Source: Escherichia coli
GTDB lineage: Bacteria; Pseudomonadota; Gammaproteobacteria; Enterobacterales; Enterobacteriaceae
Assembly (NCBI RefSeq): GCF_009931435.1
Contig: NZ_CP043415.1
Reading direction: 5' to 3' (one strand)
Length of the DNA: 64,000 nucleotides
The notes beneath the pieces were generated by a model, which worked only from the letters and a program-made list of their open reading frames with translations, made no database searches and had not been told where the DNA came from. Within the stretch, counting starts at the first letter, position 1, and each line of letters starts with the position of its first letter. This document shows positions 25,385 through 43,995 of this stretch, one piece after another. A program made the translations under genes and the position numbers.

Positions 25385-26005
25385 CTCTCTCTGGTTTTCA
25401 GCCCCCATCATCTGTTGAGTTTCGGGAGCCGCGGTTTTGACGTTTTGCGGGGACCTGCCTTTTGTTCCCTCCGGTATTCACCATCACCTGTTTGAGAACC
25501 TTCGCCGCAAGGGGCATCACTGCCACGGCCGGAAACGACTGTCCGGGGGCAGACCGCAAAAGTTTTTGCCTGCTTTTGGGCAAAAACTTTTGCGGGATGT
25601 GCATTTCACCCCTGGACTGGCGGAGACGGTTGTGGCTGTCTTTGCCCCCGGCGACAGGGGCTTAAACAGGTGAATGGCACCGGACACAACAACGGGCAGG
25701 GACCCGCCGCAACGACGTGAAGCGCGGTTTGCGAAACGGAGTTGCCCCTTACATCCCGGCGGTCTTTTGCCGGGATGTAAGGAGCGCAGGCCACGGCGCG
25801 ACCGGAACGGTCGCTGCAAGCCCGGGGTTTTCACGCATCGGACCGTAGCGACAGCCCGAAACCGCGCCAGCGGGTTTGGCGGAGACTGACAGGTGCGCCA
25901 GCAGCTGCCTGTCGGAGTCGGGCCTGACGACCGGATGCCGCCAGGCAGCCGGGAGCCGAAGGTGCGCCCGGCAGACAGGACAACACTGCAGTAGTCAGAA
26001 TCAGA
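25385..26005 (-). repeat. Leading-region repeat copy A (Frpo/ssi-like structured element)
   Basis: Near-identical to 32760-33408 and related to 36112-36600; internal hairpins GCAAAAGTTTTTGCC..GGCAAAAACTTTTGC, CATCCCGGC..GCCGGGATG, GCGACCG..CGGTCGC. Confidence 0.7.
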
Positions 26006-26280
26006 GCAGGAAGAAAAAGAGAATAATCACAGGGAAGGTGATGTGATTTCTGACAGGCCATAACCAGAGAAGGCGGGGGAAAAGAACGGGCGCCGCAGGC
26101 GCACGTTCATCCCCGTTCCTGAAGGGAAACGACCTTCCTGAAGTCAGGTTGTTCATGCCCGTACAACATCAGCAAGGAGAAAGGGGCTACCGGCGAACCA
26201 GCAGCCCCTTTATAAAGGCGCTTCAGTAGTCAGACCAGCATCAGTCCTGAAAAGGCGGGCCTGCGCCCGCCTCCAGGTTG

Positions 26281-26439
26281 CTACTTACCGGATTCGTAAG
26301 CCATGAAAGCCGCCACCTCCCTGTGTCCGTCTCTGTAACGAATCTCGCACAGCGATTTTCGTGTCAGATAAGTGAATATCAACAGTGTGAGACACACGAT
26401 CAACACACACCAGACAAGGGAACTTCGTGGTAGTTTCAT
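26281..26439 (-). CDS. hok: Hok-family toxin (flmA/hok), 52 aa
   Basis: Reverse-complement translates to [52 protein letters not shown]; below the 60-aa cutoff of the ORF track. Confidence 0.9.
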
Positions 26440-26497
26440 GGCCTTCTTCTCCTTGCGCAAAGCGCGGTAAGAGGCTATCCTGATGTGGACTAGACAT
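26285..26497 (-). CDS. mok: Mok (modulation of killing) overlapping reading frame
   Basis: 70-aa ORF overlapping hok in another frame, as in hok/mok/sok loci. Confidence 0.65.
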
Positions 26498-26535
26498 AGG
26501 GATGCCTCGTGGTGGTTAATGAAAATTAACTTACT
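26465..26535 (+). ncRNA. sok: Sok-like antisense RNA (approximate placement)
   Basis: Placed by the known architecture of hok/sok loci, antisense to the mok start region; not verified by structure. Confidence 0.35.
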
Positions 26536-26718
26536 ACGGGGCTATCTTCTTTCTGCCACACAACACGGCAACAAACCACCTTCACGTCATGAGGCAGAAA
26601 GCCTCAAGCGCCGGGCACATCATAGCCCATATACCTGCACGCTGACCACACTCACTTTCCCTGAAAATAATCCACTCATTCAGACCGTTCACGGGAAATC
26701 CGTGTGATTGTTGCCGCA

Positions 26719-27923: not shown

Positions 27924-31844
<3,921 letters not shown>

Positions 31845-31906
31845 TAGTACCTCCCAAAACGGTAATAATGATTGTCTGCCGGACGTGTCCCCGTCCGGCA
31901 CCTCTC

Positions 31907-32759: not shown

Positions 32760-33408
32760 TGATGTTTTCAGCCCCCATCATCTTTTGAGTTTCGGGAGCC
32801 GCGGTTTTGACGTTTTGCGGGGACCTGCCTTTTGTTCCCTCCGGTATTCACCATCACCTTTTTGAGAACCTTCGCCGCAAGGGGCATCACTGCCACGGAC
32901 GGAAACGACTGTCCGGGGGCAGACCGCAAAAGTTTTTGCCTGCTTTTGGGCAAAAACTTTTGCGGGATGTGCATTTCACCCCTGGACTGGCGGAGACGGT
33001 TGTGGCTGTCTTTGCCCCCGGCGACAGGGGCTTAAACAGGTGAATGGCACCGGACAGAACAACGGGCAGGGACCCGCCGCAACGACGTGAAGCGCGGTTT
33101 GCGAAACGGCGTTGCCCCTTACATCCCGGCGGCCTTTTGCCGGGATGCCAGGAGCGCAGGCCACGGCGCGACAGAGGCGGCGCGACCGGAACGGTCGCTG
33201 CAAGCCCGGGGTTTTCACGCATCGGACCGTAGCGACAGCCCGAAACCGCGCCAGCGGGTTCGGCGGAGACTGGCAGGTGCGCCAGCAGCTGCCTGTCGGA
33301 GTCGGGCCTGACGACCGGATGCCGCCAGGCAGCCGGGAGCCGAAGGTGCGCCCGGCAGACAGGACAACACTGCAGTAGTCAGAATCAGAGCAGCAGGAAA
33401 AAGAAGAA
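32760..33408 (-). repeat. Leading-region repeat copy B (Frpo/ssi-like), immediately upstream of ssb
   Basis: Near-identical to copy A over ~600 bp, with the same hairpins. Confidence 0.7.
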
Positions 33409-33462
33409 CAGTAGCAGTAGCAGTAGCAGTAGCAGTAGCAGTAGCAGTAGCAGTAGCAGTAG
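33409..33462. repeat. Hexanucleotide microsatellite (CAGTAG)x9
   Basis: Nine perfect tandem CAGTAG units, present only at the distal edge of repeat copy B; copy A has no expansion at the same place. Confidence 0.95.
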
Positions 33463-33626
33463 CAGGAACAACAACATCATCAGTAACAGACAAATGACAG
33501 GCATGAAGAAACAGAAGCCCCCATCAGAACGTCCGCGTAATGAAAGGGGCGGCGCGTGAGCGCGGCCCCTTTCAGCGCCACCGGCGCGGGCAGACAGGCA
33601 TTTATCCTCCCGCCGGCCCTGTGTCA

Positions 33627-34190
33627 TCAGGCACGCAGACGAATAATCATCGTCGGGACATCGGTATAAGCAAACGTGCCGCGCGGCAGCTCCTCGCGGA
33701 CGTCAGAAAACGGTAACAGCTTCTCCTGCTGGCGTGGTCCGTTGAGACAGACGGCGACCAGCACGCCACCCGGACGCAACAGGGAAAAGGCCCGCAGGAT
33801 ATGCCGGATATCCTGCCCGTGGCTGAACGGCGGATTCATGATAACCCGGCTGTAATACTGCACTGGCTGCCATTCCATGAAGTCGCCACACTGAACCCTG
33901 ACACCGTTAAAATTTTCCCGCAGATACCGGACCAGCCCGCTGTTGATTTCCACCGCATCACACATGGCCCCCGGCGCGGTATCCCGAATCGCCCGCAGTA
34001 TGGCCCCGGTGCCGGCAGAGGGTTCCAGAATGTGATCACGGTTGCTGATCTCCGCCAGCATCACCAGGCGATCACAGACCGGGGCAGGAGTCACAAAAAG
34101 CTGAGATTCAGCCCGGATTTCAGCAACCGGCGCGGCGTTATCCAGCCTTGCGCGCATCAGCCGGATACGTTCTCTTAACTGACTGTGCAT
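33627..34190 (-). CDS. Putative SAM-dependent DNA adenine methyltransferase (small orphan MTase)
   Basis: 187 aa with motif I-like LEPSAGTGA and motif IV-like NPPF; no adjacent restriction gene. Confidence 0.65.
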   Translation of the reverse strand: MHSQLRERIRLMRARLDNAAPVAEIRAESQLFVTPAPVCDRLVMLAEISNRDHILEPSAGTGAILRAIRDTAPGAMCDAVEINSGLVRYLRENFNGVRVQCGDFMEWQPVQYYSRVIMNPPFSHGQDIRHILRAFSLLRPGGVLVAVCLNGPRQQEKLLPFSDVREELPRGTFAYTDVPTMIIRLRA

Positions 34191-34237
34191 ATCATTATCT
34201 CCGTCATCCCCCGGGGATTTTCCCGGGGGGATATACC

Positions 34238-35599
34238 TTATTTCTGTGGGATTTCCGTGATTTTCATGTCGGTGATATACACATTCACCAGGCGGAAATT
34301 ATTGTCCATTGTGCGGCGGTACCGGTATGCCCCGTGGTCTTCTGCTTCTGCCACACTGCGCACGGCCTTACAGTCCCGGGGCAGGGCGGCCCACTGTGCC
34401 TTTGTCATTTCCCGGAAACCTTCCCCCGGATAGTTGACTACCGGCGGACGCTTCGCGGCCTGACTGGCGACGGCAGCCTCTTCTGCCGATGGTGCTTTGT
34501 AGTCCGTGATGCGATCGGGCGTCACTTTCATCGTGCCGCTGTACCCGAGAAAACTGTAATTTGGCGTTGTGACTGAACTCACCGCCCCGTTGCTTTTGTT
34601 CACACGGATGATGGTCAGCCACTCGCCCCGGCTGAAAACCTGTCCGCCCGGCTCAAAATCCTGTGTCCGGGTAACCACGCCGCCGCTTTCGTCCAGCATG
34701 GCACGCTCATAGATCAGGCGGTTCTGATAGTGGTTAACCCAGCGTTGTTGATGCTGAATCTGCCGTTCATGACAGCGGATCGCAATTTCGCGGGCCTGCT
34801 CCGTGGTGATGATGTCATCATCCAGGGCCGACCATAACGATCGACTTCCTTCATACTGGCTTTTTTCTGCCGGGCGCGGATACGTATCCAGCGGGAAACA
34901 GGCGCTGATATGGTCATGACTGCTGATGAGTTTTGCCATATTCAGATCCAGCGATTCAGCCCGCCACATCGTCAGATATTTCTGCGACTGCGCGATGGTC
35001 TTTTCAGCCTTGCGCAAATCAGCTTCGATTTTTTTGATACGACGCCAGCGAACGTCCGGACGTTCTTTATACTTCGCGTGAAGCAGTGCCGACCGCGCCC
35101 GCTCTTCCCAGTATTCCGCACGTTCAAAGAGCATCACGGCTCGTTTCATGCCGTTTTCAATACGCTGCGCATCACGACGGGCGCGGCGTTCGCTGTGATG
35201 CCCCACAAGAATGGGCTGACCGGGCGGGATCATCGCGGCCAGTCTTTCCACTTCATCAAGTGCCTGTGCGGATTCACTGGCCCGCTTTCCGCTGTATCCG
35301 GTAAACCGCTCCGCCCGTGCTTCCTGACGTTCAGCGAGCGTGCTGTCTTCATCCTCAATCTCTCCGGCAAGTGAGAGGAGCACGTCTTCCCGGCCCGGTG
35401 TCCAGGCTGGCGCGACAAACAGCGCCTGTTTTGGTGCCCAGCGGAAACCGGCATCATGCACTTTTTTATACGTCTCCGGGTCAAGACGTGACACGGCATA
35501 CAGGCGCAGTTTGTTGTCATCCGGTGAGTAGGTCGCGCGGTACATCTGCACAGGGCTGGCGGCTTCCGGGGCGGTCATGGTGATTGCTGCTGATGTCAT
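34238..35599 (-). CDS. Conserved leading-region protein of unknown function, 453 aa
   Basis: Long charged ORF co-transcribed in orientation with the downstream MTase; no recognisable catalytic motif. Confidence 0.6.
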   Translation of the reverse strand: MTSAAITMTAPEAASPVQMYRATYSPDDNKLRLYAVSRLDPETYKKVHDAGFRWAPKQALFVAPAWTPGREDVLLSLAGEIEDEDSTLAERQEARAERFTGYSGKRASESAQALDEVERLAAMIPPGQPILVGHHSERRARRDAQRIENGMKRAVMLFERAEYWEERARSALLHAKYKERPDVRWRRIKKIEADLRKAEKTIAQSQKYLTMWRAESLDLNMAKLISSHDHISACFPLDTYPRPAEKSQYEGSRSLWSALDDDIITTEQAREIAIRCHERQIQHQQRWVNHYQNRLIYERAMLDESGGVVTRTQDFEPGGQVFSRGEWLTIIRVNKSNGAVSSVTTPNYSFLGYSGTMKVTPDRITDYKAPSAEEAAVASQAAKRPPVVNYPGEGFREMTKAQWAALPRDCKAVRSVAEAEDHGAYRYRRTMDNNFRLVNVYITDMKITEIPQK

Positions 35600-35650
35600 A
35601 AAATGTTCTCCTTCCGTCTGTTGCCGCCCCTCGCGGGGCGGCTCACCTCA

Positions 35651-35881
35651 TCAGTTAAAAGCGCGTTTCAGTTCGAGTGTGCGGAGCACCTGCCCGAAGG
35701 CCGTGTTTTTCATGGCGGGGATGTGTACACCACGCCCCCGGTGAAAACTCCGGGCAATGTGTCGCCCGAAGGCTTTCAGCACGGGGTCAATTTCCGGCGC
35801 GGGGATGTCTTCGCGTCTGAAACGGGGATGACGGCGGGGCTTTACAGCCGCTGCGGAAGGTGAAACAATACTTACTGTCAT
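35651..35881 (-). CDS. Hypothetical small protein
   Basis: 76-aa ORF, first ORF downstream of repeat copy C; weak support. Confidence 0.3.
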   Translation of the reverse strand: MTVSIVSPSAAAVKPRRHPRFRREDIPAPEIDPVLKAFGRHIARSFHRGRGVHIPAMKNTAFGQVLRTLELKRAFN

Positions 35882-36111
35882 AATTTAGCCTCTTATGACG
35901 TTAATTAATGAAACCGTAAAGACTGTTCGTGCAGTCTCTGCGGTGTGGATTAAGCAGGTCCCTGACCTGCTTTTTTCATATCTGCGTCTGACGTTCTCCG
36001 GTGTTTTCCTCCTTCTGTTCCTGCGTTCTCATTACCTGCCAGCCGGATGACTGACAGAACACATAAATGCGTATTGCCGGAGCCTGAAATAAATCCTGAT
36101 TTTTAAAGAAC

Positions 36112-36600
36112 ATCACCCGTTGAGTTTCGGGAGCCGCGGTTTTGACGTTTCGCGGGAACCTGCTGCTGTATTCCCTGTGGTATGAACTTCACCCGTTTGA
36201 GAACCTTCGCCGCAAGGGGCATCACTGCCACGGCCTGACGCACCTGTCCTGGGCAGAACGCAAAATTTTTTACCGGGTTTTGGGTAAAAAATTTTGTGGG
36301 CTGTTCATTTACCCTGGACAGTCAGTGCGGCAGGTTGTGGCTGTATGAGCCCCCGGCGACAGGGACTCATACGGGTGTGTGGCATCCGGCAGGCAATGAG
36401 CAGGGACCCGCCGCAATGACGGAGAGCGCGTGCGCGAAACGGCGTTGCGCCTCACATCCCGGCGGCCTTTTGCCGGGATGCCAGGAGCACAGGCCACGGC
36501 GCGACAAGGGTGGCGCGACCGTTCCGGTCGCTGCAAGCCCGGGGTTTTGCGGCGTCAGGGATGGAAGCCCGCCAGGGCGGAGACAGCTCCGCTGGCTCCG
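36112..36600 (-). repeat. Leading-region repeat copy C (diverged Frpo/ssi-like)
   Basis: Shares TTGAGTTTCGGGAGCCGCGGTTTTGACG, TTGAGAACCTTCGCCGCAAGGGGCATCACTGCCACGG and CCCGGCGGCCTTTTGCCGGGATGCCAGGAGC blocks with copies A and B. Confidence 0.65.
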
Positions 36601-36801
36601 TTCACGACAGCCCGCCCCGCAAGCGGGACGCCCGGGAAAGCCATAAACAGGAGAGCAACGAAAAGAAGAAGAGGAAGAAGAACAATAACAAGCACGGTAA
36701 CCACAGAAAAATAACATCAGAAAAAAACATTCCGGACACATCACAAACGGGAAGGGTAACGGGCGACGCGTCAGCGTGGCCCGCTTCCCTTCCGGCAGGC
36801 G

Positions 36802-39616: not shown

Positions 39617-40300
39617 TTACGCAGCCTCCGGCATAAACCAGTCATCATTCGCGGCCCCCTGCTGCATGGCCCGTTGCACGGCGGAAAGGCGTTGCTGCCC
39701 GGCACGGTGATACTGCTCAAGCAGCTCGATACCGATATACCGGCGTCCGGACTGGAGGGCGGCGACGCAGGTTGAGCCGCTGCCTGCAAACGGGTCCAGC
39801 ACAATTGCGTTCGGGTGTGTGAAGCTCTCAATCAGCGGTTGCAGGCTGGTAACGGGCTTTTCCGTCGGGTGATGGCGATTGCCCGAATATTTCCAGCCCA
39901 GCACGTCCGGCAGCGGGTTTTGTGGCAGACGTGGACGGCCTTTTGCCAGGATGTAGGCGCATTCGTGGCGATAGCCCACATATGCGGCCTTCGATGTGTA
40001 GTTTTTGGTGAAGACCAGGTGACCAACCACGCTGAATCCCGCATTTTTCCAGGCGGCCACAAAGCGATCGACGCGGTTCCAGCCATAGAAGCTGACCATC
40101 AGCGCATCTTTTTTGAGTACGCGGTACATTTCATTACAGGCCGGTTGCAGCCATTCATCGGTTTTATCGCCAGCGATGGTGCGCCCGGAACGGTCACGGA
40201 AACCGACGAGGTACGGCGGGTCGGTGAGGATGAAATCAATGGCGTTATCAGGGATACGGGCTATAACATCGATGCAGTTACCGAGGACAAAACGGGACAT
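39617..40300 (-). CDS. Orphan DNA methyltransferase (beta-class N6-adenine/N4-cytosine MTase)
   Basis: 227 aa; DPPY motif near the N-terminus and DPFAGSGST (SAM-binding) near the C-terminus; no cognate endonuclease nearby. Confidence 0.85.
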   Translation of the reverse strand: MSRFVLGNCIDVIARIPDNAIDFILTDPPYLVGFRDRSGRTIAGDKTDEWLQPACNEMYRVLKKDALMVSFYGWNRVDRFVAAWKNAGFSVVGHLVFTKNYTSKAAYVGYRHECAYILAKGRPRLPQNPLPDVLGWKYSGNRHHPTEKPVTSLQPLIESFTHPNAIVLDPFAGSGSTCVAALQSGRRYIGIELLEQYHRAGQQRLSAVQRAMQQGAANDDWFMPEAA

Positions 40301-41586: not shown

Positions 41587-41594
41587 ACGATCGG

Positions 41595-43995
41595 GTAGCA
41601 GTGATGCATTACTGCATCACCGCCCCCTAAGAACCGTACGTGCCAGTTTCCCGGCATACGGCTCAAGCCTTTCTAAGCCCACTCTCATGAGCCGGTTTCA
41701 CTACATGTATACCTTTCGCATGAACAAGTGTGTGACACATCGGATGCAGCATAATCAAATTGGAGAGGCAGTTGCTCCCTCCATCGACTCGCCGTATGAT
41801 GTGATGAACCTGCCACTGGGAATCAGATGTAATCCTCTCATCACATATGGGGCATCGGCCCCGCTGCTCAAACCAGATTTGAATGAGCTTTTTCCGTCCT
41901 TGCAGTTTGTGCCGCATTTTGTCTGCACAACGCTCCTCAAAGTACATCTCCCATTGAGGATCGAACGGATTAGCTGCAATTTTAATCGGTTTAAACCGGT
42001 TGATAGGCGTATCGATTGCTTTCCTCAGATTTGCATACTGAGGCTTACCGTTGGCAAGGAGTTCTCCGGTAGCCGTGGAGAAAGACCAGTTTCGGGCACC
42101 TTGTTGATGGAAATATCTTTTCCGAATCCACTTCTTTCCCTTATTGGGATGACGCCGAACAGCCCAACGCCATAAAGCCAGCCAGATCTCATTGTCAACT
42201 TTGTTAAATGCGACCTTGGCCACAATGTGTTGATGGTAAGCCGCCCACCCTTTGATCATTGGGTTCAGCATGCGGATCAACGTAAGCTGATCCATAGCTT
42301 TGTTGCCTTTGATTACAGCGCGTATTTTCTTTAAAAAGGAACTGACATTGGCTTTAGAGGGTTTGATCAGCATCTTACCGCCATATTTGCGAATGTTCTG
42401 TCCAAGAAAATCAAATCCTTCCTCGATATGTGTGATTTTCGTCTTTTCCGGAGAAAGCATTAATCCTCTTTCAGCCATAAACCGCCTGACGACGGGTAAT
42501 ACCTGAGACTCAAGAAGTTCTTTTGACTCTCCAGTGATAATAAAATCATCAGCATATCTCACATAGTTAACTTTCGGGTTAACCAATCGTCCCTTGACTG
42601 TTCTCTTTTTAAACTCCGAAGCAAGAAGCGCCTCCAGTCCATCCAGAGCAATGTTAGCCAGTACAGGAGAAATTATTCCCCCCTGAGGAGTTCCTGAATT
42701 TACAGGGAATAACTGCCCCTTTTCCCTGTAACCCGCTTTAAGCCACTTTGTCAGGATTTGTCTGTCTGTTGAGGTGTTATCGATTAGCCATTGATGAGAT
42801 ATATTGTCAAAGCATCCCCGTATATCCCCCTCAAGCACCCATTCAGCGGATGTTTTCTGCGCAAGAACACAGAAGCACTGTGCTATCGCATCTGCAGTAG
42901 ACCTTCCAGTCCGAAAGCCGAAGGATCTCTGGTCAGCAGTGACTTCAGCAACGGGCTCAAGAGCCAGCAAATACAACGCCTGCATCGCCCGATCCTTCAT
43001 AGTGGGTATCCCAAGGGGACGAGACTTCCCATTTGACTTAGGTATATAAACCCGCTTAAGTGGCTGTGGTTTGTAACCACGCCGTTTCAGCAGGTTAATA
43101 GCAAGAAATTTAACCTCCGGGGAAGACCATGTCTGACCATCAACCCCAGGAGTACGTTTCCCGCTATTCTCTGTAACTCGTCTGACAGCAACTGCTCTGC
43201 CACTAAACGAGTGAGTCAGTATCCATTGCAAGGATTTGACCTTGCCATGTTTACCTTCTCGTGTTGCCTTTACGATACGCGCTTGCAGTCTCCGCACTTC
43301 CCGATAGCACTGACGCCAGTTGATACTGTGCCAGGAGTCACCGTTAAGTAAGGACGCACCTTTACAGGTTGTAGCCTGCTCAGTCATCTGCTTTTCCTTT
43401 CTGGAAGATTACTCAAACTCTCTCGTAATGAAAGACCCAGTGGAAGTCTGCCCGCTTTCGCGTAGGGTAATGTTGCCGGGCTCAACCCTTATCCGGTCCA
43501 TTACAGACTGGCATTCGCTTTTTCCACCTTCTTTTACCCGCACCGCCAACAGTATCCCTTGCGGTTAACCTGCCTCACGAGGCAGCGATACGGGCTTACC
43601 ATGTTCCACCTGAATAACAACAGTAGGTTAGACTCTGCTCACAACACCGGTGGTTTATTGTCCGTGTACCCCTAGCAAACAGAGGAGTAACCAACCACAT
43701 ACCTTTTGGTTCAAGCCTGTCAGCATCTTTGGCTTGTTCTGGTTAACGACGCTTCAGCAGTTCACATATGTTAGTCATGCTACCGAGCCTAGACCTCCTC
43801 CGCCTGATGCTGGCAGATTACATGTAACCTCACGGTTTCATGCGATCCGAAGATCCGGTTTCATTGTCCTGACAGCTTCACACCCCACCGTTACCAGTGA
43901 CGCATGTGTCAGTAGGCTACTGATGACGGAACATCAGGTTCCCTGACGGAATCGAACTCCGCTGGAACAATTATTCAGGCGACTTCATGTCGCAC
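41595..43995 (-). mobile_element. Group II intron (~2.4 kb) with intron-encoded RT-maturase-HNH protein
   Basis: Minus-strand 5' end GTGCGACATG at 43995; domain V GAGCCGTATGCCGGGAAACTGGCACGTACGGTTC at 41664-41631 overlapping the ORF stop; domain VI-like hairpin follows. 3' boundary approximate. Confidence 0.8.
41663..43387 (-). CDS. Group II intron-encoded protein (reverse transcriptase / maturase / HNH endonuclease)
   Basis: 574 aa; RT motif YVRYADDFII, maturase X region, C-terminal HNH block (CPICDERI…HHIIRRVDGGSNCLSNLIMLHPMCHTLVH). Confidence 0.92.
   Translation of the reverse strand: MTEQATTCKGASLLNGDSWHSINWRQCYREVRRLQARIVKATREGKHGKVKSLQWILTHSFSGRAVAVRRVTENSGKRTPGVDGQTWSSPEVKFLAINLLKRRGYKPQPLKRVYIPKSNGKSRPLGIPTMKDRAMQALYLLALEPVAEVTADQRSFGFRTGRSTADAIAQCFCVLAQKTSAEWVLEGDIRGCFDNISHQWLIDNTSTDRQILTKWLKAGYREKGQLFPVNSGTPQGGIISPVLANIALDGLEALLASEFKKRTVKGRLVNPKVNYVRYADDFIITGESKELLESQVLPVVRRFMAERGLMLSPEKTKITHIEEGFDFLGQNIRKYGGKMLIKPSKANVSSFLKKIRAVIKGNKAMDQLTLIRMLNPMIKGWAAYHQHIVAKVAFNKVDNEIWLALWRWAVRRHPNKGKKWIRKRYFHQQGARNWSFSTATGELLANGKPQYANLRKAIDTPINRFKPIKIAANPFDPQWEMYFEERCADKMRHKLQGRKKLIQIWFEQRGRCPICDERITSDSQWQVHHIIRRVDGGSNCLSNLIMLHPMCHTLVHAKGIHVVKPAHESGLRKA

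Follow-up and report, generated by a model that had tools for sequence, protein, structure and literature searches.

The ydaB-ydbA-ydcA cassette of IncF leading regions as a candidate operon for a split, entry-phase DNA adenine methyltransferase

What does a small orphan methyltransferase accomplish in the leading region of a conjugative plasmid, and which part is played by the larger protein encoded beside it? This question was raised by a stretch of 64,000 nucleotides from Escherichia coli (contig NZ_CP043415.1, assembly GCF_009931435.1), which is called the window in the following. Orphan methyltransferases are a major class among the genes enriched in leading regions, and the DUF3560 family, to which the larger protein belongs, is on the list of leading-region-enriched families with n=1913 (PMC11541004). 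A literature search for functional studies or experiments on DUF3560, YdbA or YdcA retrieved none. The answer that we propose, and in which we place about even confidence, is that ydaB-ydbA-ydcA is a zygotically expressed operon for a two-subunit DNA adenine methyltransferase, which would act against restriction and would be silenced by the antisense RNA AS-pc01 once the plasmid has become double-stranded.

The list of open reading frames contained three frames on the minus strand at positions 35651-35881 (76 aa), 34238-35599 (453 aa) and 33627-34190 (187 aa), for which the names ydaB, ydbA (DUF3560) and ydcA already exist in the annotation. All three are retained in the diverged versions of the module from Klebsiella pneumoniae and Edwardsiella tarda. 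The dN/dS values were 0.12-0.21 for ydaB, 0.08-0.09 for ydbA and 0.26 for ydcA. The three frames are genuine genes under purifying selection (dN/dS 0.08-0.26). They are present in more than 5000 plasmids of PLSDB and are found among the listed leading-region-enriched families. Each of them is preceded by a Shine-Dalgarno sequence of its own. Inspection of the gap between ydaB and ydbA revealed a GC-rich intercistronic hairpin on the minus strand (GCCGCCCC-GCGA-GGGGCGGC, 35623-35642), which is followed by the Shine-Dalgarno sequence GGAAGGAG.

The three genes lie between a klcA-like antirestriction gene and ssb and read towards oriT, which is the known order of IncF leading regions. The gene order of the window (traJ-traM-oriT-...-psiB-parB-ssb-module) agrees with that of an IncF plasmid whose module is 100% identical. 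The first-pass annotation had described an operon-like unit of three co-oriented frames in a leading region, directly downstream of a third repeat copy. This was confirmed; the repeat is Frpo-like, and the leading region is that of a conjugative plasmid. A (CAGTAG) microsatellite of 9.5 units (33409-33465; Tandem Repeats Finder, 100% matches, score 114) is located between the stop codon of ydcA and the neighbouring repeat, copy B.

The same annotation had counted two unrelated orphan methyltransferases in this leading region. Both are real and they are indeed unrelated. The second gene, at 39617-40300 on the minus strand and outside the cassette, encodes a beta-class enzyme of 227 aa with a DPPY motif (NCBIfam PRK13699, 495 bits), and its comparison with YdcA gave E = 0.2, with no sequence relation beyond the SAM and catalytic motifs. 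However, this second enzyme is already matched in plasmid F, whose sole DNA methylase of the leading region shares 93% identity with it. Plasmid F is known to encode a homologue of M.EcoGIX in its leading region (PMC12672017). M.EcoGIX, itself encoded in a leading region, acts on single strands as they enter and shields them from restriction through methylation (PMC7736820); it is a beta-class DPPY enzyme, and single-stranded DNA is methylated at SAY. This class feature and the homology are present in the product of the 39617-40300 gene and not in YdcA. In common with M.EcoGIX and M.BceJIII (Fomenkov et al. 2020, PMC7736820), YdcA is a leading-region orphan whose gene points in the direction that allows expression from the strand that enters. 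In contrast, M.EcoGIX has motif IV before motif I, whereas YdcA is of the gamma class and shares no sequence similarity with it. Moreover, M.EcoGIX appears to act together with DNA polymerase I and without a DUF3560 partner, which YdcA possesses.

The motifs of YdcA follow the gamma-class order, with EPSAGTG at residues 56-62 and NPPF at residues 119-122 (VIMNPPFSHG). A TP motif is found near the N-terminus within LFVTPAPVCDRLV and is followed by a helix in the structural model. In an alignment of 82 sequences G60, G62, N119, P120 and P121 were invariant, and T34 and P35 were conserved in at least 90%. The earlier assignment of the 187-aa protein as a SAM-dependent orphan methyltransferase with an NPPF motif was correct; it is an amino-methyltransferase, and there is no restriction enzyme nearby. 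Between 150 and 160 of the 187 residues align to the catalytic domain alone, and this small size leaves no room for a target-recognition domain. A target-recognition domain or an HsdS-type specificity subunit was found neither in YdcA nor in YdbA. Among the gamma-class N6-adenine DNA methyltransferases of solved structure, M.TaqI, the best match of YdcA by sequence, recognises its target through a C-terminal domain in the same chain, and the Type I subunit HsdM relies on HsdS for this purpose, whereas YdcA has neither and YdbA resembles neither. The matches in PADLOC and PHROG were exclusively DNA methyltransferases or DarB-type domains of giant phage proteins, the strongest PHROG matches being domains within phage proteins of 1200-3900 aa. 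Judged by these sequence features, YdcA is a member of the TaqI/EcoKI gamma-class N6-adenine family, of the DarB/polyvalent-protein type, that comprises the catalytic domain alone.

Does this domain act on DNA? The best NCBIfam matches of YdcA were Erm/KsgA, and in fold comparison DIMT1/KsgA, METTL5, TrmN and Erm scored as high as HsdM, M.BseCI and M.TaqI, so that the fold comparison does not separate DNA from RNA amino-methyltransferases. The enzyme might accordingly methylate host RNA or protein (for example adenine-N6 or guanine-N2 in rRNA or tRNA, or glutamine) and reprogramme the new host, with YdbA as an activating or targeting partner. TRMT112, the partner of METTL5, would be the model for YdbA, and the effect on the host would resemble the reprogramming of transcription by the neighbouring ParB-like HerB. 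Yet all RNA-methyltransferase matches lie far below the family cut-offs. In addition, the TP-helix-NPPF signature, the best match to M.TaqI and the exclusive DNA-methyltransferase and DarB matches in PADLOC and PHROG point to DNA. An RNA or protein substrate thus appears unlikely to us.

Among the DNA enzymes, the DarB-type methyltransferases of phage and conjugative-element polyvalent proteins (Iyer et al. 2017, PMC5512222), with DarB of phage P1 as archetype, are close known relatives. By its diagnostic features, the TaqI/EcoKI-like gamma order, the TP motif plus helix and NPP(Y/F), YdcA belongs to the same clade, and shielding of incoming DNA from restriction would be the common role proposed for both. 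The architectures differ. DarB-type proteins carry a C-terminal SWI2/SNF2 helicase and an N-terminal LPD36 domain, whereas YdbA-YdcA has no SWI2/SNF2 or SF2 helicase and LPD36 was not detected in it; the methyltransferase domain is the last one both in YdcA and in the typical fused relatives of 630-700 aa. Here the enzyme is divided between two polypeptides and a DUF3560 module is the partner. DarB is a virion protein that is injected, whereas YdbA-YdcA would be made in the recipient from an entry-phase promoter.

The 453-aa protein had been described as having no recognisable motif and as the partner of a small orphan methyltransferase. It does possess a recognisable domain, and it is not an independent partner. 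Residues 89-206 of YdbA match Pfam DUF3560 (PF12083, model positions 3-121 of 124, E = 1.1e-36, 126 bits); the Pfam search gave DUF3560 alone. Charged residues make up 29% of the protein, with a net charge of only +5. Among 147 representatives of 50%-identity clusters homologous to YdbA, 100 carry a YdcA-type domain C-terminal to a complete YdbA module. These fusions are typically 630-700 aa long and contain a proline-rich linker. One natural fusion is WP_011798648.1. Since YdbA is fused to this domain in most lineages, the small orphan methyltransferase is half of a split enzyme. By sequence comparison, ydbA and ydcA are the two halves of one enzyme, for which most other mobile elements encode one continuous fused chain. 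A fused copy on a P. aeruginosa plasmid adjoins ssb, DUF932, kleA and radC genes. The neighbourhoods of metagenomic fusions were mostly uninformative, because few neighbours had Pfam matches, and these were limited to RadC, a resolvase and an integrase.

The AlphaFold2 model of YdbA (pLDDT 93.6, pTM 0.82) predicts alpha/beta domains at both ends, the N-terminal one being small, together with a bundle of four long helices and an SH3-like barrel. No relatives of this model were found in the PDB, and comparison with known DNA-binding domains, target-recognition domains and HsdS gave no detectable similarity. PADLOC returned no match for YdbA. The full YdbA module was absent from 50,697 phage records, of which 4 contained the core DUF3560 domain by itself. 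When YdbA and YdcA were modelled as one chain with a (G4S)6 linker and 81 natural fusions as alignment, a pLDDT of 91.6 and a pTM of 0.74 were obtained. The pTM, an indirect measure of docking, is consistent with docking of YdbA and YdcA in the linked model. We propose that YdbA is a non-catalytic module which serves as the substrate-binding or targeting subunit.

Fusion alone is no proof of a shared reaction, because domains joined in the polyvalent proteins of conjugative elements are often unrelated in activity (PMC5512222). By this logic YdbA might be an independent effector of anti-defence or establishment, for example a decoy or an inhibitor, which is co-delivered with a self-sufficient, non-specific methyltransferase. 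The four-domain architecture unlike target-recognition domains, the few phage proteins in which the DUF3560 core stands alone and the YdbA homologues without a methyltransferase domain, about a third among the matches listed, would fit such a role. Many of the latter, however, are fragments or near-identical chimeric sequences. The fusion partner is one specific methyltransferase clade in a constant order and is not drawn from a variable assortment of domains, a DNA-binding module is missing from YdcA itself, and the pTM of the linked model stays high. We therefore consider an independent effector improbable and retain the two-subunit enzyme as the preferred reading.

The split itself, together with the lack of the cassette in classic F, could also be taken as a sign of decay: most relatives are fused, and splitting might have inactivated the enterobacterial form and left a non-functional remnant. 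But purifying selection acts on all three genes across lineages separated by a dS of about 1-2, the catalytic motifs of YdcA are intact and the Shine-Dalgarno sequences are kept for every gene. The split architecture is also common to E. coli, Klebsiella, Edwardsiella and more than 5000 plasmids. Decay is hardly a credible explanation for such a pattern.

In contrast to the two enzyme halves, ydaB (35651-35881, minus strand), with which the operon begins, is restricted to the cassette of the Enterobacterales. This follows from the small frames upstream of the fused genes in four other elements outside the Enterobacterales, which proved unrelated to YdaB, so that the gene was rejected as a constant partner of the fusions. 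A search returned 233 homologues of YdaB, and every named one among the 120 matches listed belongs to the Enterobacterales. The protein is very basic (pI 11.9, net charge +10) and hydrophilic, without a hydrophobic stretch. No match was found in NCBIfam, PHROG or PADLOC. Residues 25-62 match part of the Pfam domain HU-CCDC81_euk_1 (PF14908, model positions 18-55 of 89, i-E 7.3e-4, 20 bits), and a few homologues carry an HU-CCDC81-type annotation. The match hints, though weakly, at a DNA-binding half-domain of the HU type. A second frame of 76 aa beside repeat copy A (25831-26061) was considered as a paralogue of ydaB; no similarity was found, and the matching length is thus a coincidence.

The start of ydaB is overlapped on the plus strand by the antisense small RNA AS-pc01 (35876-35975), known from the IncFII plasmid pHK01. 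The copy in the window matches the Rfam model RF02875 over its full length (positions 1-99) with 98.9 bits, above the gathering score of 79. The Rfam entry describes it only as antisense to pHK01_035. The first-pass annotation had overlooked this RNA over the translation start of ydaB. AS-pc01 is complementary to the start codon, the Shine-Dalgarno sequence and approximately 95 nt of the 5' UTR of ydaB, and it has its own terminator at 35952-35972 plus a T-run. A sigma-70-type promoter (TTTACA, 17 nt, TG-extended AACAAT) is located at 35841-35869 on the plus strand within codons 5-14 of ydaB. Its end lies 7 nt ahead of the RNA's first base, and no other promoter-like site was found on either strand between 33400 and 36900. 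The versions from the window, K. pneumoniae and E. tarda show no differences in the -35 hexamer or the TG motif. In these three diverged modules promoter and terminator are conserved and the stems show compensatory changes; the AS-pc01 of the diverged K. pneumoniae module scored 97.7 bits. AS-pc01 was absent from F when looked for there. RT-PCR detected the RNA in a non-conjugating culture (PMC12370729). From this arrangement we infer that AS-pc01 targets the gene at the head of the split-methyltransferase operon and that the RNA can be transcribed only after synthesis of the second strand.

A conserved cis-antisense RNA with its own promoter and terminator over a ribosome-binding site and start codon is also reminiscent of type I toxin-antitoxin systems, and a hok/sok locus is present about 9 kb away in the same leading region. 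In that case ydaB and AS-pc01 would be a pair for post-segregational killing, with ydbA and ydcA as passengers. YdaB, however, is unlike the type I membrane toxins, as it is hydrophilic, strongly basic and without a hydrophobic helix. It matched no toxin family, and it heads an operon of three genes. A toxin-antitoxin pair is consequently very unlikely, and silencing of the methyltransferase operon is preferred as the function of AS-pc01.

How would the operon be switched on? The plus strand of the window is the transferred T-strand. A repeat family with three direct copies was found at 25394-26020 (copy A), 32764-33404 (copy B, plus strand) and 36099-36548 (copy C). Single-stranded-DNA promoters are known from F (Frpo) and as ssi from ColIb-P9, together with the zygotic induction of ssb, psiB and ardA. 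Copy C, as a predicted Frpo-type repeat spanning 36099-36750 on the plus strand, lies upstream of the operon with a gap of approximately 220 nt to the start codon of ydaB. With the Frpo region that precedes ssb in plasmid F it shares 88% identity over 729 nt. Its plus strand is predicted to fold into a single long hairpin of -132.9 kcal/mol (z = -8.35 versus shuffled sequences). A canonical double-stranded sigma-70 promoter in sense orientation was not found between 35881 and 36900. Inspection of copy C identified no exact positions for a -35 region, a -10 region or a +1 site. Frpo-driven genes of F are expressed in transconjugants before synthesis of the second strand (PMC12672017). By analogy with this published work on F, copy C probably acts as a promoter as well; it resembles Frpo in sequence, in the predicted hairpin and in position and orientation relative to the genes downstream.

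Two features set the cassette apart from the arrangement in F. There, Frpo drives ssb directly, whereas here an extra Frpo copy and the ydaB-ydbA-ydcA genes are interposed, and the operon additionally possesses a cis-antisense RNA. The cassette, overlooked as such in the first-pass annotation, is bracketed by two direct Frpo repeats, copy C upstream and copy B at the downstream boundary in the ssb promoter region. The single Frpo of F combines the ssb-proximal flank of copy B with the distal flank of copy C. Since classic F lacks the cassette, it is dispensable for conjugation as such.

Taken together, we suggest the following course of events. When the T-strand enters the recipient, copy C would fold into the long hairpin, which RNA polymerase would use as a promoter, and ydaB-ydbA-ydcA would be transcribed towards oriT ahead of the synthesis of the complementary strand. 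YdbA and YdcA would then assemble into the two-subunit methyltransferase, in which YdcA would supply only the catalytic Rossmann domain and YdbA nucleic-acid binding or targeting. Adenines of the plasmid DNA that enters would be methylated by the complex, whose sequence specificity is probably low. Restriction in the new host would be blunted in this way, with the M.EcoGIX-like methyltransferase and the KlcA/ArdB-like protein, both products of genes further upstream, acting alongside. In the double-stranded plasmid the hairpin promoter would be gone. AS-pc01, made only from the newly synthesised strand, would pair with the ribosome-binding site and the start codon of ydaB and keep the operon silent in established cells.

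A broader view is possible, to which we attach clearly less confidence. YdbA-YdcA and the fused relatives may represent an unrecognised class of entry-phase nucleic-acid methyltransferases, in which a minimal gamma-class unit would be guided by a DUF3560 module of novel structure, made up of the four-helix bundle and beta domains without PDB relatives. The module would load onto incoming single-stranded or newly replicated DNA. Expression would depend on strandedness, through a hairpin promoter of single-stranded DNA and an antisense RNA that only double-stranded DNA can yield. Promiscuous adenine methylation by such enzymes would provide broad protection against restriction.

Among the IncF resistance and virulence plasmids of E. 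coli, Klebsiella, Salmonella and Shigella, thousands of clinical importance possess the cassette, and it sits where the survival of a plasmid on entry into a new host is decided. The split enzyme changes how activity has to be tested, as YdbA and YdcA should be expressed jointly. Methylation should be sought in early transconjugants and not in established strains, in which the operon would be expected to stay silent owing to AS-pc01 and to the hairpin promoter having disappeared. If the enzyme is a protective methyltransferase of broad specificity, it would constitute a second, mechanistically distinct system of anti-restriction methylation beside M.EcoGIX. It might then offer a target for limiting plasmid spread, and the DUF3560 module would obtain a function. 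The strandedness-dependent on/off logic, if true, would be a regulatory principle for leading-region genes.

The three open reading frames of the cassette have exactly the coordinates claimed in the first-pass annotation. All lie on the minus strand, with a 76-aa ORF at 35651-35881, a 453-aa ORF at 34238-35599 and a 187-aa ORF at 33627-34190. Diverged versions of the module in K. pneumoniae and Edwardsiella tarda retain them, with amino-acid identities of 75-82%, 75% and 59-64% and dN/dS values of 0.12-0.21, 0.08-0.09 and 0.26, respectively. Judged by these comparisons, all three are genuine genes under purifying selection. The 453-aa gene is named ydbA and the 187-aa gene ydcA, the latter annotated as "putative adenine-specific DNA methylase" in pS88; YdaB is the UniRef name of a homologue of the 76-aa protein. 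DUF3560, the family of YdbA, is the leading-region-enriched family 28 (n = 1913) of Samuel et al. (Nature 2024), where it is labelled "Uncharacterized; DUF3560; Methyltransferase domain protein" from a Foldseek match and where orphan methyltransferases form a prominent leading-region class. A literature search for functional work on DUF3560, YdbA or YdcA found none. In chromosomal CRISPR arrays of K. pneumoniae, the DUF3560 gene is targeted by three spacers, and the SAM-methyltransferase gene and the hypothetical gene immediately upstream by one each (PMC6965323). Thus, host immunity targets the cassette repeatedly.

The window belongs to an IncF-type plasmid. Its stretch 33400-36100 matched more than 5000 PLSDB plasmids, at least 4427 of them at ≥80% coverage and one with 100% identity. 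The cassette is widespread and was annotated before now; it is not a new kind of system. The gene order in the plasmid with the identical module is traJ, traM, (oriT), SLT, hok, psiB, parB-like, DUF905, ssb, "class I SAM-dependent methyltransferase", "DUF3560 domain-containing protein", the 76-aa hypothetical, DUF1380, an antirestriction gene, more genes and "DNA methylase". This order places oriT near 23 kb in the window. On this sequence comparison, the leading region extends toward higher coordinates and the transferred strand is the + strand. The leading genes are encoded on the minus strand and read toward oriT. Two insertions were also seen in this region. An IS21-family element (istA 28795-29817, istB 29814-30596, + strand) sits inside the ParB-like gene (27924-31901), a homologue of F yfjB, lately renamed HerB, leaving an N-terminal 431-aa ORF (30606-31901, minus strand) and a C-terminal remnant (about 27924-28742, minus strand). 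A group II intron lies upstream of the DUF1281 gene (41590-43387, minus strand), recognized by Rfam Intron_gpII at 41590-41666 and a 574-aa reverse transcriptase/maturase ORF at 41663-43387.

Copies of the Frpo direct-repeat family are found upstream of ydaB (copy C, 36099-36548 and beyond), between ydcA and ssb (copy B, 32764-33404) and at 25394-26020 (copy A). All three share homology with both Frpo regions of plasmid F; over 729 nt, copy C has 88% identity to the one that precedes F ssb. The + strand of copy C is predicted to fold into a single long imperfect hairpin (-132.9 kcal/mol, z = -8.35), as a Frpo-type single-stranded-DNA promoter should. Promoters of this type have been shown to drive the expression of leading genes in transconjugants ahead of second-strand synthesis (PMC12672017; PMC7736820). 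Upstream of ydaB, the sense strand showed no canonical sigma-70 promoter. Classic F lacks ydaB-ydbA-ydcA, and a single Frpo separates its DUF1380 gene from ssb; the ssb-proximal flank of this Frpo is that of copy B and the distal flank that of copy C. Thus, the three genes are a cassette with a direct Frpo repeat on either side, and it could be gained or lost via homologous recombination between these repeats. Between copies A and B the identity is 98-99%, against only 67-92% with C, and the F Frpo that copy B matches at 98% is the one near hok/sok, not that upstream of ssb. This identity pattern suggests gene conversion or recombination among the copies. Near copy A lies the sok antitoxin RNA of a hok/sok locus in the window (26437-26613, minus strand; Rfam RF01794, 88.9 bits). 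A perfect (CAGTAG) microsatellite of 9.5 units, whose length could vary among plasmids, occupies 33409-33465 between the ydcA stop codon and copy B.

The antisense RNA AS-pc01 (Rfam RF02875, "antisense to pHK01_035") was detected on the + strand at 35876-35975, scoring 98.9 bits where the gathering threshold is 79. Through its first hairpin the RNA is complementary to the start codon of ydaB (35879-35881) and to the Shine-Dalgarno sequence of that gene, and its 3' end is a terminator hairpin with a T-run. The predicted promoter at 35841-35869 (TTTACA, 17 nt, TG-AACAAT) ends 7 nt before the AS-pc01 5' end and is the only sigma-70-like promoter found in the region. AS-pc01 occurs in the K. pneumoniae module too (97.7 bits) and is missing in F; its promoter does not vary across the three compared lineages, and compensatory changes are seen in its stems. 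The RNA has been detected by RT-PCR in vesicles of a cultured STEC strain (PMC12370729). Since its template is the non-transferred strand, no AS-pc01 can be made before the complementary strand exists, and we infer that it is an off-switch of the operon in established cells. YdaB itself (76 aa, pI 11.9) matched an HU-family model only marginally and in part (i-E 7.3e-4). The protein has 233 homologues, apparently confined to Enterobacterales, to which all named ones among the matches listed belong, and ydaB was not found next to fused genes elsewhere. It may be a small accessory protein that binds DNA, or a leader that controls translation. The strongly hydrophilic character of YdaB makes a type I toxin unlikely.

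Searched with YdbA, 1.84 billion cluster representatives yielded 3883 relatives. Among the matches listed, 100 of the 147 newly returned YdbA-homologous representatives carry a YdcA-type methyltransferase domain, in every case placed C-terminally, behind the entire YdbA module and a proline-rich linker (typically 630-700 aa in total). On a P. aeruginosa plasmid, a 658-codon fused gene adjoins ssb, DUF932, kleA and radC; others stand in runs of small co-directional genes with RadC, resolvase and integrase. As fusion prevails in the listed relatives, the enterobacterial IncF cassette is the split form. The split point is the linker; the ydbA-ydcA spacer measures 47 nt and ydcA has its own Shine-Dalgarno sequence. 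Both intercistronic spacers (minus strand, 35623-35642 and about 34207-34232) contain one GC-rich hairpin directly before the next Shine-Dalgarno sequence, GCCGCCCC-GCGA-GGGGCGGC and CCCCCGGG...CCCGGGGG; these could be mRNA stabilisers, attenuators or single-stranded-DNA structures.

The YdbA model (81 homologues in the alignment; pLDDT 93.6, pTM 0.82) consists of a small alpha/beta domain (residues 20-83), four long helices (88-122, 136-178, 181-212, 266-304), an SH3-like barrel (320-345) and an alpha/beta domain (357-442). The helical part includes the DUF3560 core (89-206) and the invariant loop GQPILVGHHS. In some relatives outside the window the N-terminal alpha/beta domain (query about 20-97) occurs twice, and it appears to be an independent, duplicable unit; other relatives reach 1400 aa through a long low-complexity C-terminal extension beyond the methyltransferase domain. 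An artificial YdbA-(G4S)6-YdcA chain, modelled with 81 natural fusions as alignment, reached pLDDT 91.6 and pTM 0.74. By a rough estimate, a freely tethered 187-aa domain would lower pTM toward about 0.55, so the value for the linked model, an indirect measure, is consistent with a defined docking of YdbA and YdcA. One main rival reading gives YdbA an independent effector role. Of the representatives that lack the methyltransferase domain, most are either fragments or chimeras that are nearly identical or proteins about 360-470 aa long. The YdbA-YdcA partnership is well supported and, in our judgement, very probable.

YdcA has the motif order of the gamma class, with motif I (EPSAGTG) preceding motif IV (NPPF). 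With its 187 aa it is a catalytic domain alone, without a target-recognition domain. The second main rival reading, an RNA or protein methyltransferase that reprograms the host, bears on its substrate. Pfam and NCBIfam gave only sub-threshold matches, to generic or RNA methyltransferase models, and fold comparison scored HsdM (19.3), DIMT1 (19.3), PH1948 (19.2), TrmN (19.0), M.BseCI (19.0), METTL5 (18.6) and M.TaqI (18.0; 30% identity) similarly for DNA and RNA enzymes, so the fold indicates an "amino-methyltransferase" and does not separate the substrate class. The top PDB sequence match is the M.TaqI catalytic domain (E = 3e-6), and the top PADLOC matches are the MADS mad2 methyltransferase (1.2e-20) and Type II DNA methyltransferases. 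The top PHROG matches (1e-32 to 1e-21) are internal domains of 1200-3900-aa phage proteins, some annotated as DNA methyltransferases. The DarB-type methyltransferases of polyvalent proteins form a TaqI/EcoKI-like clade in which a TP motif caps the N-terminal helix and contacts the Asn of NPP(Y/F) (Iyer et al.; PMC5512222). Like them, YdcA has a TP motif (LFVTPAPV...), conserved at ≥90%. We infer a DNA substrate and an anti-restriction role for YdbA-YdcA.

The 227-aa gene at 39617-40300 (minus strand), outside the cassette, encodes a beta-class DPPY enzyme (PRK13699, 495 bits). No relationship to YdcA was found, and the earlier claim of two unrelated orphan methyltransferases in one leading region was correct. 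The protein is 93% identical to the only leading-region DNA methylase of F. As the F leading region is said to encode an M.EcoGIX homologue (PMC12672017), the 227-aa gene most likely corresponds to it. M.EcoGIX acts on single-stranded DNA, which it methylates at SAY, and gives protection against restriction (PMC7736820).

In the full model, which is the reading with the best support, a two-subunit DarB-clade DNA adenine methyltransferase with YdcA as catalytic and YdbA as targeting subunit would be made zygotically and would aid restriction evasion by the incoming plasmid, and AS-pc01 would silence the operon once the plasmid is double-stranded. We give this model about an even chance of being right. 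The combination of a DUF3560 module with the proposed strandedness-dependent regulation makes the cassette a worthwhile experimental target.
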